This document shows, one piece after another, positions 4,028 through 57,110 of a stretch of 64,000 nucleotides of DNA (positions are counted from its first letter, which is position 1; each line of letters begins with the position of its first letter). The translations under genes were made by a program, and so were the position numbers. This stretch comes from Escherichia coli. Lineage in GTDB: Bacteria; Pseudomonadota; Gammaproteobacteria; Enterobacterales; Enterobacteriaceae. The notes beneath the pieces were generated by a model. It worked only from the letters and a program-made list of their open reading frames with translations, was not told where the DNA came from and searched no databases. The DNA is taken from assembly GCF_009931435.1 (NCBI RefSeq), contig NZ_CP043414.1; one strand, given 5' to 3'.

Positions 4028-4876
4028 TTATTGCCGAACCAGTCTTGTGGTCGATGGGACAAAATCGCTATTACTGCGCCACGGGTTAATGTCCAGACCG
4101 CCACGACGGGTATAACGTGCGTAAACGCTCAATTTCTCTGGCTGGCAGAAGCGTAACAGGTCATTAAAGATGCGTTCCACGCACTGTTCGTGGAACTCGT
4201 TGTGATGACGGAATGAGACCAGGTAACGCAGCAGTTTTTCTCTGTCAATTTGGCGTCCACGATACTGAATTTGGATCGAACCCCAATCTGGTTGATGGGT
4301 GATCAGGCAGTTTGATTTCAGCAGGTGGCTGACGAGCGTCTCTTCTACTACTTTTTCACCACTGGTGGCATTCTCAAGATAGTCAGTAGTGAATTCATAG
4401 TTATCGATAGTGATATCCTGGTCATCAATGCAGGTGCCATTGAAATGACCTATCGGCTGGCCTTCCAGTTCATCAAGACGATATAACGCCACGCTAACCT
4501 TACCCTGAGCGCAAGTGCTTAAGTCGCGCTCCAGCGTCTGGCGCACCTCATCCCAGTTATTAAAACGCGTCTGGTTAAAACTGTTGAGATAAAGCTTAAA
4601 ACTCTTCGACTCAATCAGATTTACGCTGGTGTAATCAAGTTCAACATGACCGACAGCGACCTGCGGCAAACCTTTCGCATTCAGCCAGGAAAGTTCATAC
4701 AGCGTCCAGATATCCGTACCGTGAAAAGGCAGGTTATCCGCTTTCAGACCCAGCGGGTCGCGATTCAGGCTGCGTGGAACGCCTTGCAGTAGGCTAGCGT
4801 CATAGGTATCCCGGTAATCGGTTGATTTTCCAAGAGTCAGGCCCGCAAGTGCCTGATGGTTTGCATAAGAAGACAT
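4028..4876 (-). CDS. queF: NADPH-dependent 7-cyano-7-deazaguanine reductase
   Basis: 282-aa [26 protein letters not shown]..., ATG at 4876-4874; two-domain QueF type. Confidence 0.93.
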
Positions 4877-10823: not shown

Positions 10824-12164
10824 ATGAGTTTTCAATTTACGACGCCTGTTGTTACTGAAATGCAGGTCATCCCGGTGGCGGGCCATGACAGTATGCTGAT
10901 GAATCTGAGTGGTGCACACGCACCGTTCTTCACGCGTAATATTTTGATTATCAAAGATAATTCTGGTCACACTGGCGTAGGGGAAATTCCCGGCGGCGAG
11001 AAAATCCGTAAAACGCTGGAAGATGCAATTCCGCTGGTGGTGGGTAAAACGCTGGGTGAATACAAAAACGTTCTGACGCTGGTGCGTAATACATTTGCCG
11101 ATCGTGATGCCGGCGGGCGCGGTTTGCAGACATTTGATTTGCGGACCACTATTCATGTGGTTACTGGGATAGAAGCGGCAATGCTGGATCTGCTGGGGCA
11201 GCATCTGGGGGTTAACGTGGCATCGCTGCTGGGCGATGGTCAACAGCGTAGCGAAGTCGAAATGCTCGGTTATCTGTTCTTCGTCGGTAATCGCAAAGCC
11301 ACACCGCTGCCGTATCAAAGCCAGCCGGATGACTCATGCGACTGGTATCGCCTGCGTCACGAAGAAGCGATGACGCCGGATGCGGTGGTGCGCCTGGCGG
11401 AAGCGGCATATGAAAAATATGGCTTCAACGATTTCAAACTGAAGGGCGGTGTACTGGCCGGAGAAGAAGAAGCCGAATCTATTGTGGCACTGGCGCAACG
11501 CTTCCCGCAGGCGCGTATTACCCTCGATCCTAACGGTGCCTGGTCGCTGAACGAAGCGATTAAAATCGGTAAATACCTGAAAGGTTCGCTGGCTTATGCA
11601 GAAGATCCGTGTGGTGCGGAGCAAGGTTTCTCCGGGCGTGAAGTGATGGCAGAGTTCCGTCGCGCGACTGGCCTGCCGACCGCAACCAATATGATCGCCA
11701 CCGACTGGCGGCAGATGGGCCATACGCTCTCGTTACAATCCGTTGATATCCCGCTGGCGGATCCGCATTTCTGGACGATGCAAGGTTCGGTACGTGTGGC
11801 GCAAATGTGCCATGAATTTGGCCTGACCTGGGGGTCACACTCTAACAACCACTTCGATATTTCCCTGGCGATGTTTACCCATGTAGCCGCTGCTGCACCG
11901 GGTAAAATTACTGCTATTGATACGCACTGGATCTGGCAGGAAGGCAATCAGCGTCTGACCAAAGAACCGTTTGAGATCAAAGGCGGGCTGGTACAGGTGC
12001 CGCAAAAACCAGGATTGGGCGTAGAAATCGATATGGATCAGGTGATGAAAGCCCACGAGCTGTATCAGAAACACGGGCTTGGCGCGCGTGACGATGCAAT
12101 GGGAATGCAGTATCTGATTCCTGGCTGGACGTTCGATAACAAGCGTCCGTGCATGGTGCGTTAA
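10824..12164 (+). CDS. gudD: D-glucarate dehydratase
   Basis: ORF track starts at 10800; the ATG at 10824 gives [39 protein letters not shown]..., the expected enolase-superfamily N-terminus. Confidence 0.92.
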
Positions 12165-27385: not shown

Positions 27386-28057
27386 ATGCAGTACCCGATT
27401 AACGAGATGTTCCAGACCCTGCAAGGTGAGGGTTACTTTACCGGCGTCCCCGCCATTTTTATTCGTTTACAGGGATGCCCGGTCGGCTGTGCCTGGTGCG
27501 ACACCAAACACACCTGGGAAAAGCTTGAGGATCGGGAAGTCTCCCTTTTCAGCATTCTGGCGAAGACCAAAGAGAGTGATAAGTGGGGGGCGGCGAGCAG
27601 TGAAGATTTGCTGGCTGTCATTGGTCGTCAGGGATACACCGCGCGGCATGTGGTGATTACGGGTGGTGAGCCTTGCATTCATGATTTGCTGCCACTGACT
27701 GACCTGCTCGAAAAGAACGGTTTTAGCTGCCAGATCGAAACCAGCGGTACTCATGAAGTACGCTGCACGCCGAATACCTGGGTTACCGTATCGCCAAAGC
27801 TGAACATGCGCGGCGGCTATGAAGTGTTGTCACAGGCACTGGAGCGAGCCAACGAAATCAAGCATCCAGTGGGACGCGTACGTGATATTGAAGCACTGGA
27901 TGAACTACTGGCAACGCTGACCGATGATAAACCACGAGTCATTGCACTGCAGCCGATTAGCCAAAAGGATGATGCCACACGTTTGTGCATTGAAACCTGC
28001 ATTGCGCGCAACTGGCGTTTGTCGATGCAAACACATAAATATTTAAATATTGCCTGA
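27386..28057 (+). CDS. queE: 7-carboxy-7-deazaguanine synthase (radical SAM)
   Basis: 223-aa ORF MQYPINEMFQTLQGEGYFTGVPAIFIRLQGCPVGCAWCDTKHTW... with CxxxCxxC radical-SAM cluster motif. Confidence 0.93.
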   Translation: MQYPINEMFQTLQGEGYFTGVPAIFIRLQGCPVGCAWCDTKHTWEKLEDREVSLFSILAKTKESDKWGAASSEDLLAVIGRQGYTARHVVITGGEPCIHDLLPLTDLLEKNGFSCQIETSGTHEVRCTPNTWVTVSPKLNMRGGYEVLSQALERANEIKHPVGRVRDIEALDELLATLTDDKPRVIALQPISQKDDATRLCIETCIARNWRLSMQTHKYLNIA

Positions 28058-28226: not shown

Positions 28227-28395
28227 GAAGTTTGGTAGATTTTAGTGGGTATAGAGTTATCTTAAACATTTACCTTTTTAATCAATGGATTAAGTGTTCT
28301 TTAACATAATGGATGTGTTGTTTGTGTGATCCTGTAAAGTTGGTAGATTGTGACTGGCTTAAAAAATCATTAATTAATAATAGGTTATGTTTAGA
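28227..28395 (+). promoter_or_regulatory. CRISPR leader of the queE-proximal array
   Basis: AT-rich; AGTTGGTAGATTGT motif at 28339-28352, 43 bp before repeat 1, and a related TTTGGTAGATTTT at 28231-28243. Confidence 0.7.
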
Positions 28396-29218
28396 GAGTT
28401 CCCCGCGCCAGCGGGGATAAACCGGCGGTAAAATTGTTGCTACCGTCTGGCCCTTGCGAGTTCCCCGCGCCAGCGGGGATAAACCGACGGTGCAGGATCT
28501 GTAATTCTTGCTCGCGATGAGTTCCCCGCGCCAGCGGGGATAAACCGAGTTATCAGGATTATTCCCGCTCCGCCGCCAGGAGTTCCCCGCGCCAGCGGGG
28601 ATAAACCGTCGTTTTTGTGGTGGGAGTGTGCGGATTGGTAGAGTTCCCCGCGCCAGCGGGGATAAACCGGCTGACATTGTCAGCTATAACCTTACAATGT
28701 GGAGTTCCCCGCGCCAGCGGGGATAAACCGACGTCCCGCTATTTCCTGGACAGTGTGTAGCGGAGTTCCCCGCGCCAGCGGGGATAAACCGGCGGCGCTA
28801 ACGTGATAATCACGATCAATTATGAGTTCCCCGCGCCAGCGGGGATAAACCGCGGGCGTTAACCTTTTTATAGGCATCTTCCTTGAGTTCCCCGCGCCAG
28901 CGGGGATAAACCGGCTTGCAGCAGCTGCGCCAACATCTGAATACGGAGTTCCCCGCGCCAGCGGGGATAAACCGCTTTTTCCCGTGACAAGATCCAGTTA
29001 ACTGTTGAGTTCCCCGCGCCAGCGGGGATAAACCGCATCACTGGACGCCCATTTGAATAACTCACAGGAGTTCCCCGCGCCAGCGGGGATAAACCGATTC
29101 AGCAAATAGCGAATTTCATAAATATGATGTGTTCCCCGCGCCAGCGGGGATAAACCGTACGTTAAACGCCATCTGTCATGGGTCGTCATGTGTTCCCCGC
29201 GCCAGCGGGGATAAACCA
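28396..29218 (+). CRISPR. type I-E CRISPR array: 14 repeats, 13 spacers (32-33 bp)
   Basis: 29-bp repeat GAGTTCCCCGCGCCAGCGGGGATAAACCG at 28396, 28458, 28519, 28580, 28641, 28702, 28763, 28824, 28885, 28946, 29007, 29068; last two repeats (29129, 29190) are GTGTT variants and the final one ends ...AAACCA. Confidence 0.97.
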
Positions 29219-29671
29219 CCATATAACCCGTTATCTCTTTCTCAAGTTTTTATATTAGCTGTACTTGTAATAAGCAACATATCCACATAACACCTCATGT
29301 TCAAAATAGTTCCCCATGCCAGATAAGTTCACAATTATCGATACAAAAAATCAAATTTAATCAAAGTGTTATATGTATAATCCTTAAACCGTTAAGAAAT
29401 TTTAATATATTATTTTTTTAATATTAATTAATGCCTGTTAATTTTTTCTTTAGAATAACAGTGTATTTTTTAAGCTTGTTATTCATTGATTAAGTAATAA
29501 ATCTGGAAGTTTGTCTTTGTTTTGAGGCTAATGAGTGGTTTTACATAACCGCCTCTATACGCTGTTGATGAATAGTTCTTATGAATAAAGATATCCAGTT
29601 CATACTTTAAGTGAAAATTGATAAAGTGCGATTCGTATTGTCTTTTATTCTAAAGACATCGAGTGTAGTTA

Positions 29672-29809
29672 ATATTCCTTGTAAAAACAGGGATAAACCG
29701 AACTAGTTAAAGTTTTTATTATGTTCCCTGCATCAGCGGGGATAAACCGGACTTGTTATCATTTTTTAAGTTGTCGAACTTATGTTCCCCGCGCCAGCGG
29801 GGATAACCA
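29672..29809 (+). CRISPR. degenerate mini-array remnant (about 3 decayed repeats, one clear 32-bp spacer)
   Basis: TTCCTTGTAAAAACAGGGATAAACCG (ends 29700), ATGTTCCCTGCATCAGCGGGGATAAACCG (29721-29749), 32-bp spacer 29750-29781, ATGTTCCCCGCGCCAGCGGGGATAACC (29782-29808). Confidence 0.75.
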
Positions 29810-29855
29810 TTCAGGTATGTTCAGGCCGGGCAGTTTCCCGCCCGGCCTTCCTCAC

Positions 29856-31334
29856 TTACGCATTCGACCAGCTCTGGATCGAATCTGCATTCCCCAACTC
29901 ACCATGCATCACTTCATACGATTTTTTCAGGATCACATCAGTGTGTTTGGTTAGGTCTTTGAAAATGCCTTTATTCATCGCGTCGTAGCGTTTGGCATTG
30001 CTCTCAATCGGCATAAAGATATCTTTCACGCGAACCATTTTGTCGACAGCCGTTGCGTAATCCGGGTATAGCCCCAGACCTATCGCTGTATTAATCGCGG
30101 CCCCCAGACTTGCGCAACCGTTAATGGCGTTACGGCGTGCCGGAAGGTTGAACACGTCGGCAAAAATCTGCATAAACAGATCGCTGTTCGAACCACCGCC
30201 AGTAATGATCACATGTTTCGCAAAGTGATTCATTTCATGACACATATTGTCGTAATTGTTCTTCAGCGTCAGCGCCACGCTTTCCAGTATCGAACGATAA
30301 ATCCATGCGTAATCCATGCTGGAATCAAAGCCGATCATAATTCCGCGTTTGTACGGTTCCCACGGATTGGTCAGCCAGTCCAGCACCGTCATCAGACCAT
30401 TACAGCCAGGCGGCACACAACAAGCTTTTTTGTTGAGCAAATCTTCCGGTGAAAGATCCTGCGCCCTGGCATCCTGAATTAACGATTCGCCTAGCATGTC
30501 GCGCAGCCAACTCACCGTCCACATACCTTTTCGAATACCATAACCTTCATACAGCAAGGTTTCCGGAATAGAAGACATGATCGGCCAGTACGCAACCGGA
30601 TCTTTCGGCAGTGCTTTGCCGTTCATCATCAACGCGATGTAGGTACCAAGAGAAATTACCGCCGTTTCATCATCCAGTAACCCTGCTCCCAGTGCTTCTA
30701 CCGGTTTATCACTGGTGGTACAAACAACGGGCAGTCCAACCGGGAAATGTGTCGCCAGCGCGGCTTGTGGTGTGATATGCCCAAGTACAGTGCCCGGCAT
30801 TTGCACATCAAAAAGCATCTGTCGGGGAATATTAAACTTCTCCATTACCGCGGTATCTTCGCTCCATGCCCAGGTCTTATAATCCACCGGCCACTGACCA
30901 AAATAGTTGGCGATATTGTCTTTAAACTCGCCGGTTAAACGGTGTGTCAGATAACCTGAAAAAGAGGTGACATATGCCACATCAGGATTGATGTGCTCGT
31001 AGGGACGTGTTACGCGTGCATCCTGCCAGCTAATCAACGGCGCAGCTGGCGTGCCATCGGCTTTCAATAACGCACGGCAGCAACGGATAGATCCCAGACC
31101 AATGCCGACAATATCTTCTTTATTCCCGGCAAACTGGCTCATCAAATCGTGACCAGCAAAACATAATGATGCCCATAAATCATCGTCAGGATGTTCTGCG
31201 GTATCGGCATCTGGAGTGTGCATCGGTTGTAATAAGCCTTTGCCTTCGCAAACCACGTTACCTTCCAGATCGTACATCACCACTTTTGTGCTCTGACTTC
31301 CGCCATCAATCCCTATGATGTATTTTTTCGACAT
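29856..31334 (-). CDS. ygcE: FGGY-family sugar (pentulose/hexulose-type) kinase
   Basis: 492-aa ORF MSKKYIIGIDGGSQSTKVVMYDLEGNVV... (FGGY N-terminal signature). Confidence 0.88.
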   Translation of the reverse strand: MSKKYIIGIDGGSQSTKVVMYDLEGNVVCEGKGLLQPMHTPDADTAEHPDDDLWASLCFAGHDLMSQFAGNKEDIVGIGLGSIRCCRALLKADGTPAAPLISWQDARVTRPYEHINPDVAYVTSFSGYLTHRLTGEFKDNIANYFGQWPVDYKTWAWSEDTAVMEKFNIPRQMLFDVQMPGTVLGHITPQAALATHFPVGLPVVCTTSDKPVEALGAGLLDDETAVISLGTYIALMMNGKALPKDPVAYWPIMSSIPETLLYEGYGIRKGMWTVSWLRDMLGESLIQDARAQDLSPEDLLNKKACCVPPGCNGLMTVLDWLTNPWEPYKRGIMIGFDSSMDYAWIYRSILESVALTLKNNYDNMCHEMNHFAKHVIITGGGSNSDLFMQIFADVFNLPARRNAINGCASLGAAINTAIGLGLYPDYATAVDKMVRVKDIFMPIESNAKRYDAMNKGIFKDLTKHTDVILKKSYEVMHGELGNADSIQSWSNA

Positions 31335-46309: not shown

Positions 46310-48967
46310 GTGACTTTCTTTGATTTCTGGGGAAAAACCCGACGTGGCGAGAAAGAGGGTGGCGACGATTATCACCTTCTTTGCTGGCATTCGCTGGATG
46401 TAGCCGCGATAGGCTATTTAATGGTCAAAAACAACTGTTTCGGGCTGGCTGACTATTTTCGTCAATTAGGTTTCGCTGACACGGATCAGGCAGCACAATT
46501 TTTCGCCTGGTTGTTGTGCTGGCACGATACTGGAAAATTTGCCCGCTCATTTCAGCAACTTTACCTGCACCCACAACTCAAGGTTCCGGAAGGCGCAAGA
46601 AAGAATTACGAAAAGATCTCTCATTCAACGCTGGGTTACTGGTTGTGGCATCATTATTTAATTGAATGTGAAGAGTTGCTTCCTTCATCTTCACTCTCTT
46701 TGCGCAAACTTAAACGAGTAATAGATATGTGGATGCCCGTGACGACCGGGCATCATGGTCGGCCTCCTGACCGTATCGATGAACTGGACAACTTTCTGCC
46801 TGAAGACAAAGCTGCCGCACGGGATTTTCTCCTTGAAATCAAGGTACTGTTTCCGCTCATCGAGATCCCTACATTCTGGGATGATGACGAGGGCGTTGAA
46901 CTTATAAAACATTTTTCCTGGTATATCTCTGCAACCGTCGTACTCGCAGACTGGACGGGATCGTCAACGCGGTTTTTTCCACGCGTTGCACAGGCAATGG
47001 ATATTAAAGATTACTGGCAGAAGGCTTTAGTTCAGGCTCAAAACGCATTAACCGTCTTTCCCCCAAAAGCAGAAAGCGCGCCTTTCACTGGAATTAATAC
47101 GCTGTTTCCTTTTATTGAGAACCCAACACCGTTACAGCAAAAGGTGTTGGATCTGGATATCAGCCAGCCAGGACCACAGTTGTTTATTCTGGAAGATGTG
47201 ACTGGCGCAGGTAAAACAGAAGCGGCGCTTATCCTGGCGCACAGGTTGATGTCTGCGGGGAAAGCACAGGGTTTGTTTTTTGGCCTGCCAACAATGGCAA
47301 CGGCCAATGCCATGTACGATAGGCTGGTAAAAACCTGGCTTGCTTTCTATTCGCCACAATCCCGCCCCAGCCTGGTGCTGGCACACAGCGCTCGTTCGCT
47401 AATGGATCGCTTTAACGCATCGCTGTGGTCTGGTGATTTTGTGGGGTCAGAAGAACCGGATGAACAAGCGTTCAGTCAGGGATGTGCGGCCTGGTTTGCT
47501 GACAGTAACAAGAAGGCGTTGCTGGCTGAAATTGGCGTCGGCACGCTGGATCAGGCGATGATGGCGGTGATGCCGTTCAAACATAATAATCTGCGGCTTC
47601 TGGGGCTGAGTAACAAAATCCTGCTAGCCGATGAGATCCACGCCTGTGACGCTTATATGTCGTGCATTCTTGAAGGGCTGATCGAGCGGCAGGCGCGTGG
47701 CGGAAACAGCGTTATTTTGCTTTCTGCTACGTTGTCTCAACAGCAGCGTGACAAACTCGTCGCCGCCTTTGCGCGTGGTGCAGAGGGCCAGCAAGAAGCT
47801 CCGTTGCTGGAAAAAGATGATTATCCCTGGCTGACGCATGTCACGAAATCCGATGTGCATTCGCACCGGGTAGCGACGCGCAAAGACGTTGAGCGCAGCG
47901 TGAGTGTGGGTTGGCTTCATAGCGAACAAGAGTGTATTGCGCGTATCGAATCGGCGGTAAGTCAGGGGAAATGCATCGCCTGGATTCGGAATTCTGTCGA
48001 TGACGCCATCCAGGTTCATCGTCAGCTGCTTGCCCGCGGCGTCATTCCTGCTTCCAGCCTTTCACTTTTTCATAGCCGCTTTGCTTTCAGCGATCGCCAG
48101 CGAATTGAAACGGAGACGCTGGCACGCTTTGGTAAAGAAGACTGTTCACAGCGTGCCGGAAAAGTCCTCATTTGTACTCAGGTCCTGGAGCAGAGCGTCG
48201 ACTGCGACCTGGACGAAATGATTTCCGACCTTGCCCCTGTTGATTTACTGATCCAGCGAGCAGGGCGATTACAGCGACATATCCGCGATATTAATGGTCA
48301 GTTAAAGCGTGACGGTAAAGACGAGCGTCACCCTCCTGTATTGCTGATTCTGGCCCCCGTCTGGAACGACTCTCCGGGTGAAGAATGGTTTGGCTGTGCC
48401 ATGCGTAACAGTGCATTTGTCTATCCCGATCATGGGCGAATCTGGTTGACGCAGCGTGTGCTGCGTGAACAAGGCGCGATTCAGATGCCACACTCAGCCC
48501 GGCTTCTGATTGAATCAGTCTACGGTGAGGACGTGGTAATGCCGGAAGGGTTTGCCCGCAGCGAGCAGGAGCAAGTGGGCAAATACTACTGCGATCGTTC
48601 AATGGCTAATAAGTTTGTGCTGAACTTCAGGCCCGGCTATGCCGCCAATATCAACGATTACCTCCCGGAAAAACTGTCGACACGTCTGGCTGAAGAGTCT
48701 GTTTCCCTGTGGCTGGCTAGCTGTATTGGCGGTGTGGTGAAGCCTTATGCCACCGGTGCACACGCATGGGAAATGAGCGTTGTCAGAGTGCGCCAAAGCT
48801 GGTGGAAAAAACATCGGGATAAGTTTTCTTTACTGGAAGGGGATGCGTTCAGGCAGTGGTGCGTTGAACAGCGGCAAGATCCGGAGATGGCAAACGTGAT
48901 TTTGGTCACCGATGACGAAAGTTGTGGATATTCGGCTACGGAGGGATTGATTGGCAAGGTTGGTTGA
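46310..48967 (+). CDS. cas3: Cas3 HD-nuclease/helicase (type I-E)
   Basis: 885-aa ORF (GTG start, AAGGA RBS); HD motif ...LLCWHDTGKF..., Walker A VTGAGKTEA, DEIH box LLADEIHACD, then helicase C-terminal region. Confidence 0.93.
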   Translation: MTFFDFWGKTRRGEKEGGDDYHLLCWHSLDVAAIGYLMVKNNCFGLADYFRQLGFADTDQAAQFFAWLLCWHDTGKFARSFQQLYLHPQLKVPEGARKNYEKISHSTLGYWLWHHYLIECEELLPSSSLSLRKLKRVIDMWMPVTTGHHGRPPDRIDELDNFLPEDKAAARDFLLEIKVLFPLIEIPTFWDDDEGVELIKHFSWYISATVVLADWTGSSTRFFPRVAQAMDIKDYWQKALVQAQNALTVFPPKAESAPFTGINTLFPFIENPTPLQQKVLDLDISQPGPQLFILEDVTGAGKTEAALILAHRLMSAGKAQGLFFGLPTMATANAMYDRLVKTWLAFYSPQSRPSLVLAHSARSLMDRFNASLWSGDFVGSEEPDEQAFSQGCAAWFADSNKKALLAEIGVGTLDQAMMAVMPFKHNNLRLLGLSNKILLADEIHACDAYMSCILEGLIERQARGGNSVILLSATLSQQQRDKLVAAFARGAEGQQEAPLLEKDDYPWLTHVTKSDVHSHRVATRKDVERSVSVGWLHSEQECIARIESAVSQGKCIAWIRNSVDDAIQVHRQLLARGVIPASSLSLFHSRFAFSDRQRIETETLARFGKEDCSQRAGKVLICTQVLEQSVDCDLDEMISDLAPVDLLIQRAGRLQRHIRDINGQLKRDGKDERHPPVLLILAPVWNDSPGEEWFGCAMRNSAFVYPDHGRIWLTQRVLREQGAIQMPHSARLLIESVYGEDVVMPEGFARSEQEQVGKYYCDRSMANKFVLNFRPGYAANINDYLPEKLSTRLAEESVSLWLASCIGGVVKPYATGAHAWEMSVVRVRQSWWKKHRDKFSLLEGDAFRQWCVEQRQDPEMANVILVTDDESCGYSATEGLIGKVG

Positions 48968-49063
48968 TATGCCTGCGACAGGATTCTCTGAATAGTTGAT
49001 ACACAAAAAAGGATGGAAGGATGGATAACCGACCTGGGATGGTCTTTTTACGAGAGGATGCGT

Positions 49064-50626
49064 ATGAACTCGTTTTCACTTCTGACAACCCCGTGGTTGC
49101 CCGTTCGTTATAAAGACGGAACGACAGGCAAACTGGCGCCAGTCGATCTGGCGGATGAAAATGTTGTCGATATCGCTGCGCCGCGGGCAGATCTCCAGGG
49201 TGCGGCATGGCAGTTTTTGCTGGGACTACTACAAACCAGCTTCGCGCCCAAAAATCACGGTCGTTGGGATGATATATGGGAAGACGGACTGGAAGCTGAA
49301 AAGCTAAGGGAAGCATTGCTGTCTTTAGAACATGCTTTCCAGTTTGGCCCAGATTCCCCTTCATTTATGCAGGATTTCGAGGCGCTTACGGGAGATAAAG
49401 TTCCTGTCGCTTCGTTACTGCCTGAAATTCCCGGCGCTCAAACAACGAAGTTCAATAAAGACCACTTTATTAAGCGTGGCGTGACTGAACACATATGCCC
49501 TCATTGTTCCGCGTTAGCGCTGTTTTCCCTACAGTTAAATGCGCCGTCAGGCGGCAAAGGCTATCGCACCGGTTTGCGCGGCGGTGGGCCAATGACGACG
49601 CTGATTGAATTACAGGAATATCAGGGCAATCAACAAACACCCTTGTGGCGCAAACTGTGGCTCAACGTGATGCCGCAGGATGAATCTGACTTACCGCTAC
49701 CCAAAAAATTTGGCGATCTGGTTTTCCCCTGGCTTGGCCCGACGCGTACCAGTGAACTGGCCGGTGCGGTGGTAACTGATGATCAGGTCAACAAACTCCA
49801 GGCGTACTGGGGAATGCCTCGGCGCATACGTGTTGATTTTAATACCACGACAGTCGGCAACTGCGATATTTGCGGTGAGCAGAGCGACGCGCTCCTGAGC
49901 CTGATGACGACCAAAAATTACGGTGCGAATTATGCCATGTGGCAGCATCCCTTAACGCCCTACCGTATACCACTTAAAGAGGGCGGCGAGCTTTACTCGG
50001 TTAAACCACAACCGGGCGGTTTAATCTGGCGCGACTGGCTAGGACTTATCGAAACGGGTAAGTCAGAAAACAATACGGAACTTCCCGCGCTGGTGGTGAA
50101 ACTCTTTAATGCCAGCAGTCTGAAACAGGCAAAAGTGGGCCTGTGGGGATTTGGCTATGATTTCGACAACATGAAAGCGCGCTGTTGGTACGAACACCAT
50201 TTCCCGCTACTGCTCAATAAAAAAGAAGGCCAGATACCAAAGCTGCGGCTGGCTGCGCAAACGGCTTCACGGATTCTAAGTCTGTTACGGAGTGCATTGA
50301 AAGAAGCATGGTTCTCCGATCCAAAAGGTGCACGGGGTGATTTCAGTTTTGTGGATATCGACTTCTGGAACAAAACTCAGCATCGCTTCCTGAGGTTAGT
50401 GCGTCAAATTGAAGAAGGTCAGGAGCCGGATGAATTACTCAGCAAATGGCAAAAGGAAATGTGGTTATTCGCGCGTCAGGATTTTGACGAGCGGGTATTC
50501 ACTAATCCTTATGAGCCCGTTGATTTGAAACGCGTCATGACCGCGCGCAAGAAATATTTTACAACATCGGCGGAGAAGCAAAGTGCTAAAGCCGCCAGGG
50601 AGAAAAAGCAGGAGGCTGCTGAATGA
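49064..50626 (+). CDS. casA: Cse1/CasA, Cascade large subunit
   Basis: ORF track starts 49013; the ATG at 49064 has a GAGAGG RBS and gives MNSFSLLTTPWLPVRYKDGTTGK..., a Cse1-family N-terminus; about 520 aa. Confidence 0.85.
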   Translation: MNSFSLLTTPWLPVRYKDGTTGKLAPVDLADENVVDIAAPRADLQGAAWQFLLGLLQTSFAPKNHGRWDDIWEDGLEAEKLREALLSLEHAFQFGPDSPSFMQDFEALTGDKVPVASLLPEIPGAQTTKFNKDHFIKRGVTEHICPHCSALALFSLQLNAPSGGKGYRTGLRGGGPMTTLIELQEYQGNQQTPLWRKLWLNVMPQDESDLPLPKKFGDLVFPWLGPTRTSELAGAVVTDDQVNKLQAYWGMPRRIRVDFNTTTVGNCDICGEQSDALLSLMTTKNYGANYAMWQHPLTPYRIPLKEGGELYSVKPQPGGLIWRDWLGLIETGKSENNTELPALVVKLFNASSLKQAKVGLWGFGYDFDNMKARCWYEHHFPLLLNKKEGQIPKLRLAAQTASRILSLLRSALKEAWFSDPKGARGDFSFVDIDFWNKTQHRFLRLVRQIEEGQEPDELLSKWQKEMWLFARQDFDERVFTNPYEPVDLKRVMTARKKYFTTSAEKQSAKAAREKKQEAAE

Positions 50627-51159
50627 GTATTGTAAAAGAGGAGCACAAAGCCACGCTGCGCAAATGGCACGAGGAATTGCAGGAAAAACGCGGCAATCGT
50701 GCCAGTCTGCGGCGTAGTACGACGGTTAATGATGTTTGTTTGTCAGAAGGGTTTCGTTCTCTGCTGATGCAGACCCACACGTTGTGGAAAGTTGAAGCGC
50801 AAGAGTGGCGTTTTACCGCACTGGCACTGGTCGCTGCAGTTAGCGCCAATGTAAAAGCCATTGATGAACGGCAGCCTTTTGCCGCGCAGCTGGCGGCAGT
50901 AATGTCAGAAGGGCGGTTTTCGCGCCTGTCGGCAGTAAAAACGCCGGATGATTTACTGCGCCAGTTACGTCGCGCGGTCAAATTATTAAACGGTTCCGTC
51001 AATCTTATCTCTTTGGCAGACGATATTTTCCGCTGGTGCCAGGAGAGTGACGACCTGCTCAACCATCACCGCCGTCAGCAGCGGCCAACAGAATTTATCC
51101 GTATCCGCTGGGCGCTGGAATATTACCAGGCTGGCGACGCCGATAACGAACAAAATTAA
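50623..51159 (+). CDS. casB: Cse2/CasB, Cascade small subunit
   Basis: 178-aa ORF; GGAGG RBS; ATGA overlap with the casA stop; operon position. Confidence 0.85.
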   Translation: MSIVKEEHKATLRKWHEELQEKRGNRASLRRSTTVNDVCLSEGFRSLLMQTHTLWKVEAQEWRFTALALVAAVSANVKAIDERQPFAAQLAAVMSEGRFSRLSAVKTPDDLLRQLRRAVKLLNGSVNLISLADDIFRWCQESDDLLNHHRRQQRPTEFIRIRWALEYYQAGDADNEQN

Positions 51160-51173
51160 TAAAGGACTATCTC

Positions 51174-52229
51174 ATGACGACATTTATTCAGCTCCATTTG
51201 TTAACCGCTTACCCTGCAGCCAACCTTAACCGTGATGACACCGGTGCGCCGAAAACCGTGGTGCTGGGTGGAGCAACGCGTCTGCGCGTTTCCTCGCAAA
51301 GTCTGAAACGTGCGTGGCGCACTTCTGCACTTTTTGAACAGGCGCTGGCGGGCCATATTGGTATTCGTAGTGGGCGTATCGCGCGCGAGGCAGCAACTAT
51401 CATGATTGAGAAAGGAATCGAAGAAAAAAAAGCCATCGAATGGGCGGCAGATATTGCCGATTATCTTGGTAAAGCCAAAAAAGACAAAAAAACAAAAGAT
51501 CCGCTCACTAACGCTGAAACTGAACAGCTCGTCCATATCAGCCCTGCAGAATTTGACGCCGTAAAAGCGCTGGCCCATCAACTGGCAGAAGAAAAGCGCG
51601 CGCCAAAAGAGGACGATCTCGCTTTGTTACGTAAAGATCGTATGGCGGTAGATATCGCCATGTTTGGTCGTATGCTGGCGAATAAACCCGAGTTTAATGT
51701 TGAAGCCGCCTGTCAGGTCGCGCACGCGTTTGGTGTCAGTGAAACGATTGTCGAAGATGATTTTTTCACCGCCGTTGATGATTTGCGCCAGGCCTCTGAA
51801 GATGCTGGTGCAGGGCATCTTGGTGAAACTGGGTTTGGTTCTGCGCTGTTCTACACCTATATCTGCATTGATAAAGATCTGCTGGTCGAAAACCTCGGCG
51901 GTGACGAAGCATTAGCTAATCAGACCCTGCGCGCCTTTACGGAAGCAGCGTTTAAAGTTTCCCCAACCGGTAAACAAAACAGCTTTGCCAGCCGTGCCTA
52001 CGCCTCCTGGGCGCTGGCAGAAAAAGGCACCGAACAACCGCGTTCTCTGGCGGCGGCTTTCTATGAACCCATTAATGGCACACGTCAGTTAGATGTGGCA
52101 GTGCAGCGTATTACAACGCTTCGCGAAAACATGAATACGGTTTACGAACAGAAGACCGAATGCGCAAGTTTTGACGTGATGAACAAACAGGGAAGCATGA
52201 AGGACGTGCTGGACTTTATCTGCGCGTAA
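51174..52229 (+). CDS. casC: Cas7e/CasC, Cascade backbone
   Basis: 351-aa ORF MTTFIQLHLLTAYPAANLNRDDTGAPKTVVLGGATRLRVSSQSLKRAWR... (Cas7 RAMP signature). Confidence 0.9.
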   Translation: MTTFIQLHLLTAYPAANLNRDDTGAPKTVVLGGATRLRVSSQSLKRAWRTSALFEQALAGHIGIRSGRIAREAATIMIEKGIEEKKAIEWAADIADYLGKAKKDKKTKDPLTNAETEQLVHISPAEFDAVKALAHQLAEEKRAPKEDDLALLRKDRMAVDIAMFGRMLANKPEFNVEAACQVAHAFGVSETIVEDDFFTAVDDLRQASEDAGAGHLGETGFGSALFYTYICIDKDLLVENLGGDEALANQTLRAFTEAAFKVSPTGKQNSFASRAYASWALAEKGTEQPRSLAAAFYEPINGTRQLDVAVQRITTLRENMNTVYEQKTECASFDVMNKQGSMKDVLDFICA

Positions 52230-52239
52230 GGGGCGGCTT

Positions 52240-52986
52240 ATGAGCCAATATCTGATTTTTCAGCTTCATGGGCCAATGGCATCCTGGGGCGTTGATGCAC
52301 CCGGTGAGGTGCGTCATACCCATGAACTGCCTTCGCGTTCAGCATTGCTGGGGCTGCTGGCTGCCGGGTTAGGGATACGGCGTGATGACACCGAATGCTT
52401 AAACGCGTTTAATCGCCACTATTCACTGGTGGTTTGCGCCAGCCGTAACCCGCGCTGGGCACGGGATTATCACACGGTCCAGATGCCAAAAGAGGTGCGT
52501 AAAGCGCGTTATTTCAGCCGTCGCGAAGAGTTGAGCGACCCTGATCTTCTAAGCGCGATTATCTCCCGGCGCGACTACTACACCGATGCCTGGTGGATGG
52601 TGGCCGTGGCAACAACAGCTGATGCGCCTTACAGCCTCGAACAGTTGCAGGAAGGTTTACGCCATCCGGTTTTTCCGCTTTATCTGGGGCGAAAAAGCCA
52701 TCCGCTGGCGTTACCCCTTGCGCCGTTACTGCTCGAAGGCAACGCGTCTGATGCCTTACGTACCGCATATCAACAGTATCAGGATCGTTTCCACGAACTA
52801 AAAGTCTCACTCCCGAAACTTCAGGATGAATGCTGGTGGGAAGGGGAACACGACGGCCTGGTCGCGAGCAAAATATTACGCCGCCGGGATGTTCCTTTAA
52901 ATCGTCAGCAGTGGCTGTTTGGGGAACGCACTGTCAATCAGGGGCCGTGGCTCAGCAAGGAGGAACCATGTACCTCTCAAGAATAA
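52240..52986 (+). CDS. casD: Cas5e/CasD
   Basis: 248-aa ORF MSQYLIFQLHGPMASWGVDAPGEVRHTHELPSRSALLGLLAAGLGIRRDD... (Cas5e N-terminal signature). Confidence 0.9.
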   Translation: MSQYLIFQLHGPMASWGVDAPGEVRHTHELPSRSALLGLLAAGLGIRRDDTECLNAFNRHYSLVVCASRNPRWARDYHTVQMPKEVRKARYFSRREELSDPDLLSAIISRRDYYTDAWWMVAVATTADAPYSLEQLQEGLRHPVFPLYLGRKSHPLALPLAPLLLEGNASDALRTAYQQYQDRFHELKVSLPKLQDECWWEGEHDGLVASKILRRRDVPLNRQQWLFGERTVNQGPWLSKEEPCTSQE

Positions 52987-53614
52987 CCTTACATACCGGC
53001 CAGCTTTCCCCAGCGCAGTTGCTGCATCTGGTGGATCGCGGTGAATATGTGATGCATCAGTGGCTGTGGGATCTTTTCCCTGGCGGCAAAGAAAGGCAAT
53101 TTCTTTATCGTCGGGAAGAACTCCAGGGCGCGTTTCGCTTTTTTGTCCTGTCGCAGGAACGCCCGGCGGAAAGTGAAACGTTCACCATCGAATGCCGGTC
53201 ATTTGCGCCGGAGCTGCGTACCGGACAATCCCTTTTTTTCAACCTGCGAGCGAATCCAACAGTCTGTAAAGCGGGTAAGCGCCACGATCTGCTGATGGAG
53301 GCGAAACGGCAGGTGAGGGGGCAGGCGGAAGGAAGTGATGTCTGGTTGCATCAACAACAGGCGGCGCTGGGCTGGCTGGCTGCGCAGGGAGAGAGAAGTG
53401 GTTTTACACTGCTGGATACCTCGGTCGATGCCTACCGACAACAGCAACTGCGGCGGGAAAATGCCCGGCAACTGATCCAGTTCAGTAGCGTGGATTATAC
53501 GGGGATGCTGACGGTCACCGAGCCAGGGTTATTTCTGCAACGTCTCTGCCTGGGGTATGGCAAAAGCCGGGCGTTCGGCTGTGGTCTGATGTTAATCAAA
53601 CCCGGAGCAGAGGC

Positions 53615-53618
<4 letters not shown>
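52968..53618 (+). CDS. casE: Cas6e/CasE, pre-crRNA endoribonuclease
   Basis: ORF track starts 52830; the ATG at 52968 with AGGAGG RBS gives MYLSRITLHTGQLSPAQLLHL...; contains FNLRANP and C-terminal glycine-rich GYGKSRAFGCGLM motifs. Confidence 0.88.
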
Positions 53619-54828
<1,210 letters not shown>

Positions 54829-54924
54829 GTTACCCGTTCTTTAAAAATAAGGAAATGTTTGAATTTAGTTGGTAGATTGTTGATGTGGAATAAAATTGTT
54901 TAAAAACAGATACGTATGCTTAGT
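54829..54924 (+). promoter_or_regulatory. CRISPR leader of the cas2-proximal array
   Basis: AT-rich 96 bp; AGTTGGTAGATTGT at 54868-54881, 43 bp upstream of the first repeat. Confidence 0.8.
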
Positions 54925-56050
54925 GTGTTCCCCGCGCCAGCGGGGATAAACCGTGGATTATGACGCCAGAGAGCTTCCTGTTTGCGTGTTCCCCGCGCCA
55001 GCGGGGATAAACCGCTGGCTAATAACATCCCACTGAATATTATTTCGTGTTCCCCGCGCCAGCGGGGATAAACCGAGGTGTGGCATGCGGGGAATTATGA
55101 TCCGGTAGTGTTCCCCGCGCCAGCGGGGATAAACCGTGACAACGGCCGGCCGCTCTTTTTGCGGTCATGTGTTCCCCGCGCCAGCGGGGATAAACCGATC
55201 ATCGGCATCATCTCGTGATACTCATCCGGCGTGTTCCCCGCGCCAGCGGGGATAAACCGCCCAGGCTTTACGTGAGCTGGCGGATGTGGCCGTGTTCCCC
55301 GCGCCAGCGGGGATAAACCATACGGTCAAGCGATATCAGGGGTACTGTGTCGTGTTCCCCGCGCCAGCGGGGATAAACCGGGCGCCGCATCTTTATCGTA
55401 AAGCATGTAAAGGTGTTCCCCGCGCCAGCGGGGATAAACCGACCGCTCACACCCAGACAAGCGCCACTAACGTGTGTTCCCCGCGCCAGCGGGGATAAAC
55501 CGAACGCCGCATCAGCTAAATACGCTAAAAAAATGTGTTCCCCGCGCCAGCGGGGATAAACCGCGGCTGATACTCAGGAGCAGGCCAGAGAGCGTGTGTT
55601 CCCCGCGCCAGCGGGGATAAACCGTACCACCTGTGTATTGAGTTACGTCGCCGGGGGTGTTCCCCGCGCCAGCGGGGATAAACCGGAGCTTCATCGGTGG
55701 TTCTGGGAGCAACGGGAGTGTTCCCCGCGCCAGCGGGGATAAACCGGCACAAGTGACTACATCAAGGATGGGGAATGGGTGTTCCCCGCGCCAGCGGGGA
55801 TAAACCGATTAACATTGCAATTGAATTGACGCGTATGAGGTGTTCCCCGCGCCAGCGGGGATAAACCGCAGGCAGCACGGCGGGTTTTGCCCGGATATTT
55901 GTGTTCCCCGCGCCAGCGGGGATAAACCGCAAAACCAATAGGTGCTTTCCACATTGCAGAAGTGTTCCCCGCGCCAGCGGGGATAAACCGCTCTCGGTTC
56001 TGGGGTACTGTTACCCATAACTGAGCTCCCCCGCGTCAGCGGGGGAACTC
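54925..56050 (+). CRISPR. type I-E CRISPR array: 19 repeats (18 canonical plus degenerate terminal), 18 spacers
   Basis: 29-bp repeat GTGTTCCCCGCGCCAGCGGGGATAAACCG at 54925, 54986, 55047, 55108, 55169, 55231, 55292, 55352, 55413, 55474, 55535, 55596, 55657, 55718, 55779, 55840, 55901, 55962; terminal degenerate GAGCTCCCCCGCGTCAGCGGGGGAACTC (56023-56050); spacers 31-33 bp. Confidence 0.97.
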
Positions 56051-56072
56051 CCAGCTCCCATTTTCAAACGCC

Positions 56073-57110
56073 TCATGACGCCTTCACCAGCTCCTTCACC
56101 AGCGGTAGCATTATCCGCATAACGTCACGGCAGCGACGTTCTATTCTTCCAGGAAGCGCCTTATCAATATGCTGTTGATTATCAAGCCTTACATCATGCC
56201 AGCTATTTCCCGCCGGGAAGGCCGGTGTTTTTGCGCGTTGCTGATAACCATCCTTATTTCCAAGATTCCAGTTGGTCGCCTCCACCGAAAGTACCGCAAT
56301 ACCGGCTTTGTCGAAAACTTCTGCATCATTACAACACCCGGTGCCTTTCGGATAGTTTTTATTCAAACCTGGATTTGTTGTCGCTGCAATCCCATGATTA
56401 CGCGCAATTGCCAGCGCTCGATCACGGGTTAATTTCCTGACAGCCTCTGGTGTATTTACACCACTATTAAAATACAATTTATCGCCAACAATTAAGTTAT
56501 CGAGATTAATCACCAGCAGCGTATTTTTCTTTTCGGTGTCACTCATCCGTTTGAGTAAATTCTCAGCGCCTAATTTTCCTTCCTCTTCGCCGCTGGTCGC
56601 CACAAATCGAATACCATACTCGGTAGGCGTATTTTTCAGGCGTTCAGCCAGTTCCAGCATGACACCTAAACCTGCGGCGTTATCATCCATTCCTTGTAAC
56701 GTTAGCCCGCCGAGATTGGCATCGGCGTCAGCATCGCTCAGCGGGGCGTAAGTATCCAGATGCGCCATAATGATGATCTGCTGCGGCGCTTTGCCTTCAT
56801 GAGCGGCAATCACCGTACTTCCCGTCACGTTATGCCAGCTCTTGCGATTATCGCGGGCGGTGTAAATATATCGGCTATTAAATGTCCGAATATCACTGCG
56901 ATAACCCATCTGTTGAAACTGTTGGCGAATATAATCGGCAGATAACATTTCTGCAGGAGTTCCGGTCATGCGTCCCGGAAAGAAAGTAGCAATATGTCGT
57001 GCCTGTGTATTAGCAAAATCACCAGGTTTAGGTGACGAGGCGTGTACGGGGAGAATAAAGCATACGCCGAGCGCCAGGGCAGCGGTACGGTGGCGCAATG
57101 CGGAAAACAT
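56073..57110 (-). CDS. iap: alkaline phosphatase isozyme conversion aminopeptidase
   Basis: 345-aa ORF MFSALRHRTAALALGVCFILPVHASSPKPGDF... (signal peptide, M28-type peptidase). Confidence 0.92.
   Translation of the reverse strand: MFSALRHRTAALALGVCFILPVHASSPKPGDFANTQARHIATFFPGRMTGTPAEMLSADYIRQQFQQMGYRSDIRTFNSRYIYTARDNRKSWHNVTGSTVIAAHEGKAPQQIIIMAHLDTYAPLSDADADANLGGLTLQGMDDNAAGLGVMLELAERLKNTPTEYGIRFVATSGEEEGKLGAENLLKRMSDTEKKNTLLVINLDNLIVGDKLYFNSGVNTPEAVRKLTRDRALAIARNHGIAATTNPGLNKNYPKGTGCCNDAEVFDKAGIAVLSVEATNWNLGNKDGYQQRAKTPAFPAGNSWHDVRLDNQQHIDKALPGRIERRCRDVMRIMLPLVKELVKAS

Follow-up and report, generated by a model that had tools for sequence, protein, structure and literature searches.

The window analyzed here, a 64-kb (64,000-nucleotide) stretch of Escherichia coli DNA, carries the CRISPR-II locus between queE (ygcF) and ygcE. 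At positions 29672-29810, three type I-E repeats (R1, R2, and R3) enclose two spacers (A and B), forming a mini-array that starts 453 bp downstream of the 13-spacer array of this locus, in the identical orientation, and ends 45 bp from the stop codon of ygcE. An initial annotation of this DNA had placed the mini-array about 450 bp downstream of the larger array, in the same orientation and adjoining ygcE, and both placements are correct, the neighboring open reading frame encoding an FGGY kinase whose RefSeq counterpart is ygcE. The cognate cas I-E genes form a complete operon, cas6e included, within the same window. The features of the locus and the related elements of the window are as follows, with the strand given where one applies.

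27386-28057, plus strand: queE (ygcF), flanking the CRISPR-II locus on its upstream side; an open reading frame with a Radical_SAM Pfam match, annotated queE in homologous RefSeq loci.
28240-28395, plus strand: leader 2.3, an AT-rich tract (28-31% GC) abutting the first repeat of the large array.
28396-29218, plus strand: the CRISPR2.3 array, 14 repeats and 13 spacers, with the consensus repeat GAGTTCCCCGCGCCAGCGGGGATAAACCG.
29219-29671: intervening sequence, 453 bp, AT-rich and without a long open reading frame.
29307-29327, plus strand: repeat-like fragment TAGTTCCCCATGCCAGATAAG.
29672-29700, plus strand: R1, ATATTCCTTGTAAAAACAGGGATAAACCG; the most degenerate repeat, 18/29 to the consensus.
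29701-29720, plus strand: spacer A, AACTAGTTAAAGTTTTTATT; 20 nt, falling 12 nt short of the normal length, 15% GC.
29721-29749, plus strand: R2, ATGTTCCCTGCATCAGCGGGGATAAACCG; degenerate, 24/29 to the consensus.
29750-29781, plus strand: spacer B, GACTTGTTATCATTTTTTAAGTTGTCGAACTT; canonical 32 nt, 28% GC.
29782-29810, plus strand: R3, ATGTTCCCCGCGCCAGCGGGGATAACCAT; the terminal repeat, 24/29 to the consensus.
29823-29848: G+C-rich hairpin, GGCCGGGC...GCCCGGCC, in the space separating R3 from the ygcE stop codon.
29856-31334, minus strand: ygcE, an FGGY-family sugar kinase gene (Pfam; RefSeq counterpart annotated ygcE), convergent with the arrays.
46310-54828: the cas I-E operon, cas3, cse1, cse2, cas7, cas5, cas6e, cas1, and cas2 (Pfam).
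54829-54924: leader 2.1.

R2 and R3 stand at the canonical distance of 61 nt, set by the 32-nt spacer B, and R1 and R2 at 49 nt, 12 nt short, set by the 20-nt spacer A. R3 has a perfect core and a truncated 3' end, with ATAACCAT in place of ATAAACCG. The initial annotation had described three degenerate repeats and one clean 32-bp spacer; the three repeats are borne out and spacer B is exact, but spacer A had been overlooked as a second spacer.

The match of R2 and of R3 to the consensus (24/29 each) is well above anything found elsewhere in the 64-kb window, where the best site outside the two true arrays does not exceed 19/29. R1 taken alone is at chance level, six further sites of 18/29 being present on the plus strand; aligned as a unit, R1 plus spacer A against R2 plus spacer B give a score of 34, compared with a shuffle maximum of 24 (0 of 2000 shuffles reaching 34). 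The last 11 nt of R1 are a perfect repeat 3' end with the handle GGGATAAACCG intact, and all three repeats fold on the plus strand as the canonical 7-bp stem with a tetraloop (R1, -7.9; R2, -12.1; R3, -15.1 kcal/mol), the antisense hairpins of R1 and R2 being interrupted (-4.4 and -8.7 kcal/mol). The R1 stem is kept through two C-G to T-A double changes and one G-U wobble, and R2 retains its hairpin, with one G-U wobble, as well as its 3' handle. Given the unit alignment that beats the shuffles, the perfect 11-nt 3' end, and the retained hairpin, R1 is a real repeat despite its chance-level match by itself, and the mini-array is a genuine remnant of a type I-E array system. Formal alignment of the repeats, named by the initial annotation as a possible refutation, thus places the similarity well above chance. 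Descent of spacer A from spacer B as a decayed duplicate was also considered, since the two match ungapped at 12/17 positions, and was rejected: 410 of 2000 shuffles do as well as the spacer-only alignment, and the likeness arises because both spacers are AT-rich in composition.

The mini-array is the published E. coli CRISPR2.2, is already known, and does not constitute a new discovery. CRISPR2.2 has been described as three repeats with two invariable spacers (Garcia-Gutierrez et al., PMC4489801), and the CRISPR-II locus (ygcE-ygcF) as containing either one array (CRISPR2.2-3) or two (CRISPR2.2 and CRISPR2.3) 0.5 kb apart, with leaders named only beside CRISPR2.1 and CRISPR2.3 (Almendros et al., 2014, PMC3903273). 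The same one- or two-array picture, with the leaders likewise, was given by Diez-Villasenor et al. (2013, PMC3737337), in whose account K-12, O157:H7, and BL21-AI all have CRISPR2.2. The nomenclature is that of Diez-Villasenor et al. (2010) as cited in PMC4489801, PMC3903273, and PMC3737337. Over 163 nt around the mini-array, the window is 100% identical to O157:H7 strains and 99.4% identical to K-12 MG1655 derivatives, and its copy is one base apart from that of K-12, in the R3 loop (C vs. T). CRISPR2.2 is presumably also the "CRISPR2b" of STEC typing schemes. In the RefSeq annotation the mini-array is unmarked, the CRISPR feature stopping at the end of CRISPR2.3, and no RefSeq feature lies under it in any of the 40 matches listed. 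Because the NCBI pipeline leaves it unannotated, naive scans will keep rediscovering it, and the main value of the present finding is correct annotation, with little importance beyond that. An Rfam search of the region returned no family, the sole match being a chance one to GadY inside the large array.

The distribution of the mini-array was surveyed by megablast in 5426 complete E. coli genomes, with the interval 29219-29860 (642 nt) as query. This interval was found in 4534 genomes, with coverage of at least 80% in 4123; the mini-array itself (163 nt, coverage at least 80%) is complete in 4039 of the 5426, about three quarters, and all full-length matches listed in a sample spread across the results are at least 97.5% identical over the 163 nt. 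Spacer B is present in identical form in 4048 of the 5426 genomes (4048 of its 4062 carriers), and spacer A is invariant in the sampled E. coli. Approximately one quarter of E. coli genomes, plus natural deletion variants, are without one or both spacers.

Among the sampled strains, variation at the mini-array consists of deletion derivatives only, and polarised spacer acquisition was not seen. R2 and spacer B have been lost from three loci (L005, L091, and L094), leaving R1-spacer A-R3; these loci fall on two different flanking haplotypes, so that this form probably arose by two independent events. In L002 and L003, the array beginning at leader 2.3 is fused and closes directly with a terminal repeat of R3 type, which starts with GAG as in CRISPR2.3 and ends ...ATAACCATTCAGG as in R3. 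IS insertions or larger deletions account for L004, L087/L005, and L093. The initial annotation had proposed a comparison with other strains for longer arrays at this position. None was found in about 65 spread-sampled full-length matches (the matched span differing from the length of the query by no more than 4 nt, apart from one match with a 61-nt deletion), the 20 fetched loci with the mini-array contain three repeats at most, and the published description calls the spacers invariable (PMC4489801). Its other suggestion, of deletion events between repeats, is realized in the R1-spacer A-R3, R1-spacer B-R3, and fused derivatives, and deletion between repeats clearly shapes the locus.

The age of the arrangement was approached by searching a single genome of each species with YgcE as query. 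No array lies beside ygcE in Citrobacter, Enterobacter, and related genera. In Escherichia albertii, Escherichia whittamii, and Escherichia sp. MOD1-EC7003, leader 2.3 is present with at most three full repeats and the same downstream hairpin, and the AT-rich intervening DNA is absent. The terminal junction GGGGATAACCATT(C/T)AG is common to all three, and a ...GGGGATAACCATTCAGG junction closes their arrays and those of L002 and L003. Since the same terminal junction and hairpin are found in three outgroups without the AT-rich DNA, R3 is the repeat with which the entire CRISPR-II locus ended ancestrally in the genus. Genome E69, despite its E. coli label, stands as a separate species representative in the collection, the third codon positions of its ygcE being 19.7% divergent, compared with 8.4% diversity within the E. 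coli sample. Its mini-array reads R1-spacer B-R3, with R1 identical and 2/32 changes in spacer B, and it carries the intervening DNA at 73% identity overall, the DNA further upstream of R1 diverging by 23-31%. The leader 2.3 tract is 92-94% identical in E. albertii and E69. Since E69 shares the intervening DNA as well as R1, spacer B, and R3, both the split arrangement and spacer B are older than the diversification of E. coli, and the initial description of the mini-array as the remains of an ancient array is consistent with such an age. The first three bases of the repeat also change from old to new: the mini-array repeats begin with ATA, ATG, and ATG, the last two of CRISPR2.3 with GTG (the final one ending in A instead of G), and its 12 newest with GAG.

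The mini-array had further been credited with an AT-rich tract of its own. The intervening DNA (29219-29671) is indeed AT-rich, with 27.6% GC overall and 15-16% at 29350-29499, but it has neither similarity to a leader nor a promoter-like site. Leaders 2.1 and 2.3 resemble each other (3 of 1000 shuffles score as well) and share the motif AGTTGGTAGATTG, whereas the 150 nt before R1 resemble neither leader 2.3 nor leader 2.1 (842 and 716 of 1000 shuffles, respectively, score as well); descent of the tract from a leader as a diverged copy was rejected, the scores lying within the shuffles against both. A simple consensus scan detected no sigma-70-like site on the plus strand of 29219-29672, and a consensus scan found no terminator between the two arrays. 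A scan for the IHF consensus missed even the true leaders and is given no weight for the tract. The 5' two-thirds of the tract are hypervariable and the last ~100 nt are conserved, the real diversity outlier being the hypervariable AT-rich core at 29300-29499. An origin from a mobile element was rejected because the tract has no phage or plasmid homologue, three matches in the plasmid collection being 4.8-4.9-Mb E. coli chromosomes filed as plasmids. Derivation of the whole 453 bp from decayed repeat-spacer units was likewise rejected, there being no in-phase remnants besides the fragment at 29307 and no 61-nt GC periodicity.

That fragment (29307-29327), also pointed out in the initial annotation, is present in the window, where it matches consensus positions 2-16 at 13/15 (1 of 2000 shuffles) and lies 365 nt (6 x 61 - 1) upstream of R1, with no other in-phase remnant, but it is unconvincing across other lineages. 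K-12-type alleles match at 12/15 (about 4% of shuffles), and no likeness is detectable in L088, L089, and E69. The extra C that raises the score in the window is derived, T being found in all other alleles including E69, and the GCCAG part of the fragment reads ATATG or CCCCG in other lineages. The fragment was therefore not accepted as a secure relic repeat, being significant only in the lineage of the window; it is probably a chance resemblance, and at best an unprovable vestige.

The search for spacer targets proposed in the initial annotation revealed none in phages or plasmids. A search of 50,697 phage and 72,556 plasmid records gave no credible protospacer for spacer B, with an E value of about 0.3 for the top match to a genuine phage or plasmid; a match at E = 0.02 and three perfect "plasmid" matches are to chromosome-sized records (4.8-5.5 Mb) filed as plasmids. 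With a pattern tolerating the flipped-out every-sixth base, spacer B was found in IMG/VR only as the E. coli locus itself (L103), and within E. coli genomes it occurs at 4074 places in 4062 genomes, with no second site beyond the locus. Spacer A has two unrelated exact 20-nt matches without a PAM in IMG/VR, plausibly chance matches of an AT-rich 20-mer among 2.9 million contigs. Spacers A and B are unusually AT-rich (15 and 28% GC), the remaining 31 spacers of the window averaging 47-51% GC.

Beyond R3, the hairpin at 29823-29848 folds at -21.7 kcal/mol on the plus strand and -28.4 kcal/mol on the minus strand (z about -4.4), and is conserved in all Escherichia loci examined. On the plus strand E. 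coli has a weak T-tract (TTCCTCACTT) and E. albertii a better one (TTTTCCTCATTT), and the consensus terminator scan did not call the hairpin. It is likely a terminator common to the convergent CRISPR and ygcE transcripts.

The observed identity, anatomy, distribution, and deletion variants of CRISPR2.2, its want of leader homology and of targets, and the ancestral status of R3 can be accommodated in a single history, in which CRISPR2.2 is, with high probability, the oldest part, farthest from the leader, of the type I-E array at the Escherichia CRISPR-II (queE-ygcE) locus. Arrays of type I-E gain new spacers only at the leader-repeat junction. In most E. coli, approximately 0.45 kb of AT-rich DNA now separates CRISPR2.2 from the still-growing CRISPR2.3 and leader 2.3, and this DNA perhaps entered an array that was once continuous or took the place of part of it; the direction could also be the opposite, the outgroups having lost the AT-rich DNA by repeat-repeat deletion as occurs within E. 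coli. As acquisition takes place only at the leader-repeat junction, CRISPR2.2, with no recognisable leader, would be unable to grow, so that its two spacers would be frozen while its repeats drift slowly from the consensus, chiefly by GC-to-AT changes. The dynamics that remain would be those of recombination between repeats, with loss either of R2 and spacer B or of spacer A and R2, and, where a CRISPR2.3 repeat recombines with R3, deletion of all that lies between to yield the fused CRISPR2.2-3 array. We infer that CRISPR2.2 is today inert for immunity, subject at most to read-through transcription as far as the hairpin at 29823-29848, although the complete cas operon and the canonical R2-spacer B-R3 unit count against inertness. 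By analogy with terminal degenerate repeats as discussed by Almendros et al. (PMC3903273), it may serve as a recombination-resistant anchor end. Overall, the initial reading holds insofar as a genuine old remnant and deletions are concerned, and needs correction on the single spacer, on the AT-rich tract, which is no recognisable leader, and on the 29307 fragment; its proposed check for longer arrays was negative.

The level of constraint on the mini-array was estimated in 14 strains picked by ygcE identity. The block 29570-29810 has 13 segregating sites in 241 (pi 0.0095), the third codon positions of ygcE 56 in 233 (pi 0.084), and its first and second positions 18 in 464 (pi 0.011), diversity in the block being about 9-fold below that at the third codon (synonymous) positions. 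Divergence from E69 is 7.8% in the block and 19.7% at ygcE third positions. By polymorphism and by E69 divergence, the block evolves at approximately 0.2-0.4 of the synonymous rate, and its polymorphism-to-divergence ratio is not clearly different from that of the third positions. Such a rate seems no lower than that of ordinary constrained intergenic DNA, and the low diversity of the block allows some selective constraint without demanding a special function. Strong purifying selection on the mini-array was suggested by 1/241 segregating sites in the first eight strains and was rejected with the 13/241 of the larger sample, which indicates ordinary intergenic constraint. In R1, 10 of the 11 differences from the consensus are GC-to-AT, and all seven stem pairs are kept; in simulations of AT-biased decay, a fully paired R1 stem has a probability of 0.012-0.035 unconditionally and of 0.13 given five stem transitions. 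Compensatory changes in the R1 stem were consequently not accepted as proof of selection at the RNA level, a chance P of up to 0.13 making them suggestive only.

Three other explanations of the mini-array have to be weighed against its interpretation as the old end of CRISPR-II. That the repeat likeness is a chance or low-complexity artefact, with no array behind it, could be argued from the chance-level match of R1 by itself and from the 29307 fragment, which is not robust across lineages; however, R2 and R3 reach 24/29 at an exact 61-nt spacing where nothing outside the true arrays exceeds 19/29, the R1 unit aligns with the R2 unit better than in all 2000 shuffles, the hairpins are kept, and arrays of other species end in a repeat homologous to R3. 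The artefact explanation is already refuted by the consensus scan, the shuffle test, and the outgroup arrays, and its probability is vanishingly small. Alternatively, the mini-array could once have been a separate growing array with the AT-rich tract as its decayed leader, the locus then consisting of two leader-array units in tandem, with the downstream unit dead. The tract is leader-like in being AT-rich, its last ~100 nt are conserved in E. coli and fairly well in E69, and R1, R2, and R3 share A at position 1 and T at position 2, suggesting that they were copied from one another. In an array growing from the leader end, acquisition is polarised and the leader-proximal repeat is expected to be the best preserved, yet R1, which would occupy that place, is the most degenerate of the three. 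The tract is also unlike both functional I-E leaders, which share motifs with each other, and published descriptions recognise no leader here (PMC3903273, PMC3737337). Finally, R3 ends single leader-2.3 arrays in three outgroup species, which argues that the trailer belongs to the leader-2.3 array, and a separate origin is in our judgment highly improbable.

Wobble pairs in R1 and R2 favour the crRNA-sense strand, and if transcribed, R2-spacer B-R3 would give a canonical crRNA consisting of ATAAACCG, spacer B, and ATGTTCCCCGCGCCAGCGGGG. The mini-array could be a functioning gene kept by selection, encoding one or two invariant crRNAs or a different kind of small RNA. Transcription would start within the conserved ~100-150 nt upstream or reach the mini-array by read-through from CRISPR2.3, and the RNA, cut by Cas6e at the hairpins that remain and loaded into Cascade, would be directed at a chromosomal or long-standing mobile sequence in a regulatory or housekeeping role. 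Consistent with this, R2-spacer B-R3 is canonical, with its 8-nt 5' handle intact, a spacer of 32 nt, and a perfect R3 hairpin; R1 and R2 form full hairpins on the plus strand only; the block 29570-29810 is some 9-fold less diverse than ygcE synonymous sites; R1 is identical in E69 though the DNA further upstream diverges; and a complete I-E cas operon is present. On the other side are the lack of a promoter-like site upstream and of leader homology, of a second spacer B site in E. coli genomes, and of a phage or plasmid target, together with a rate of change in the block that demands no special function, the one quarter of genomes and the deletion variants that do without one or both spacers, and an R1 stem that is compensated by chance in up to 13% of the decay simulations. 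Moreover, Cascade binding in K-12 as assayed by ChIP-seq was attributed only to CRISPR-I spacers and, weakly, to spacer 2 of CRISPR-II, with no signal attributed to further spacers (PMC5904413). A working crRNA or small-RNA gene is thus decidedly unlikely. Low diversity, strand-specific R1 and R2 hairpins, and an R1 unchanged in E69 are nevertheless hints of selection on 29570-29810, which may conceivably be kept for an invariant, non-immune spacer-B crRNA or as a recombination-proof anchor/terminator module for CRISPR-II and ygcE transcripts, though we regard this as unlikely. Should a functional reading prove right, E. coli would possess a gene for an invariant crRNA that has been overlooked in standard work on CRISPR-I and CRISPR-II.

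The window copy shows no material difference from CRISPR2.2 as published, and its sequence is 99-100% identical to those of K-12, O157:H7, and thousands of further genomes. It occupies the same place between CRISPR2.3 and ygcE (453 bp compared with ~0.5 kb), has the same three type-2 (I-E) repeats and two invariable spacers with no leader, and is replaced in some strains by the fused CRISPR2.2-3 form, encountered here in L002 and L003. With anchor repeats, such as the degenerate repeat and spacer at the iap end of CRISPR2.1 (PMC3903273), CRISPR2.2 shares a leader-distal position and drift from the consensus, and in both the oldest unit is kept species-wide and resists loss by recombination with consensus repeats. 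Unlike them, CRISPR2.2 is detached by 453 bp of non-repeat DNA and has three repeats instead of a single one. Orphan or fossil CRISPR arrays resemble CRISPR2.2 in having no leader, no spacer turnover, and degenerate repeats, but CRISPR2.2 differs from these in that the 64-kb window also contains its cognate cas I-E operon and two arrays of the active type; it is orphaned from its leader, not from its CRISPR system. Comparison of the loci portrays a CRISPR-II locus whose terminal repeat, R3, is fixed genus-wide and whose two oldest spacers have stayed frozen from a time before the diversification of E. coli, with repeated deletions between repeats yielding the known single-array and two-array forms.

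The mini-array CRISPR2.2 (29672-29810; three repeats, R1 to R3, enclosing spacers A and B) and the adjoining gene ygcE (29856-31334, minus strand) differ sharply in their relatedness to other strains. The 3' part of ygcE in the window (29860-30560, 701 nt) is a rare allele, matched at 99% identity or more in just one of 5372 genomes and at 94-96% in most of them, whereas most genomes share the segment carrying the mini-array (29660-29822), at a distance of 50 bp, with 99-100% identity. This abrupt shift suggests, from the pattern of sequence identity, that a recombination breakpoint lies where ygcE and CRISPR2.2 meet. The ygcE allele nearest to that of the window was found in strain 2020CK-00188, in which the stretch aligned to 29611-29690 carries a divergent haplotype inside an otherwise near-invariant block (29570-29810). 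Variants of the type seen in E69, a species-level-divergent Escherichia genome labelled E. coli and used here as an outgroup, are present in this haplotype (G to A at 29628 and TA to CG at 29636-37), and the R1 loop has an additional A-to-C change.

The DNA between the mini-array and the larger array CRISPR2.3 (28396-29218) has an AT-rich core (29300-29499) that is hypervariable, with a nucleotide diversity (pi) of about 0.08 among eight E. coli sequences and a divergence from E69 of 23-29%, exceeding that of ygcE third codon positions (19.7%). Two or three deep haplotypes appear to segregate in the aligned core, differing for example at 29318-29322 (GCCAG versus ATATG). Within CRISPR2.3, whose first spacer is 33 nt long, the repeat variant changes along the array: the 12 leader-proximal repeats start with GAG and the last two with GTG, a shift that carries on into the mini-array as ATG/ATA.

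The structure of the locus also varies in other strains. IS1 and IS903B are each inserted in the intervening DNA of one strain (loci L004 and L093, respectively), and in AVS0947 a gene annotated as aminoimidazole riboside kinase directly follows ygcE, with no repeat and no hairpin between the two genes (positions 1-700 of the fetched locus). In two further loci (L087 and L005) a deletion has fused a truncated ygcE to queD, in agreement with a reported deletion of about 12 kb (PMC5359238).

Some database matches to this region are misleading. In the plasmid collection, three entries (NZ_OL790696.1, NZ_CP141089.1, and NZ_CP134663.1), each 4.8-4.9 Mb long, are evidently E. coli chromosomes misfiled among plasmids, and they produce false "plasmid" matches for spacer B. 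Similarly, the "viral" IMG/VR contig IMGVR_UViG_2531839665_000019 holds the E. coli ygcE-CRISPR2.2 locus itself at 11700-11960; this is host chromosome taken into a viral prediction, and the match risks being mistaken for a protospacer.

The window also carries, within 46310-56052, a complete cas operon followed by a leader and an array, the latter bordered by an open reading frame:

46310-54828, type I-E cas operon, complete from cas3 through cas2
directly after the operon, CRISPR2.1 leader, 96 nt
from 54925, CRISPR2.1 array, 18 full repeats with spacers of 31-33 nt
56024, degenerate terminal repeat of CRISPR2.1
56073-57110, minus strand, open reading frame adjoining CRISPR2.1

This reading frame presumably sits where iap sits in the published CRISPR-I locus.
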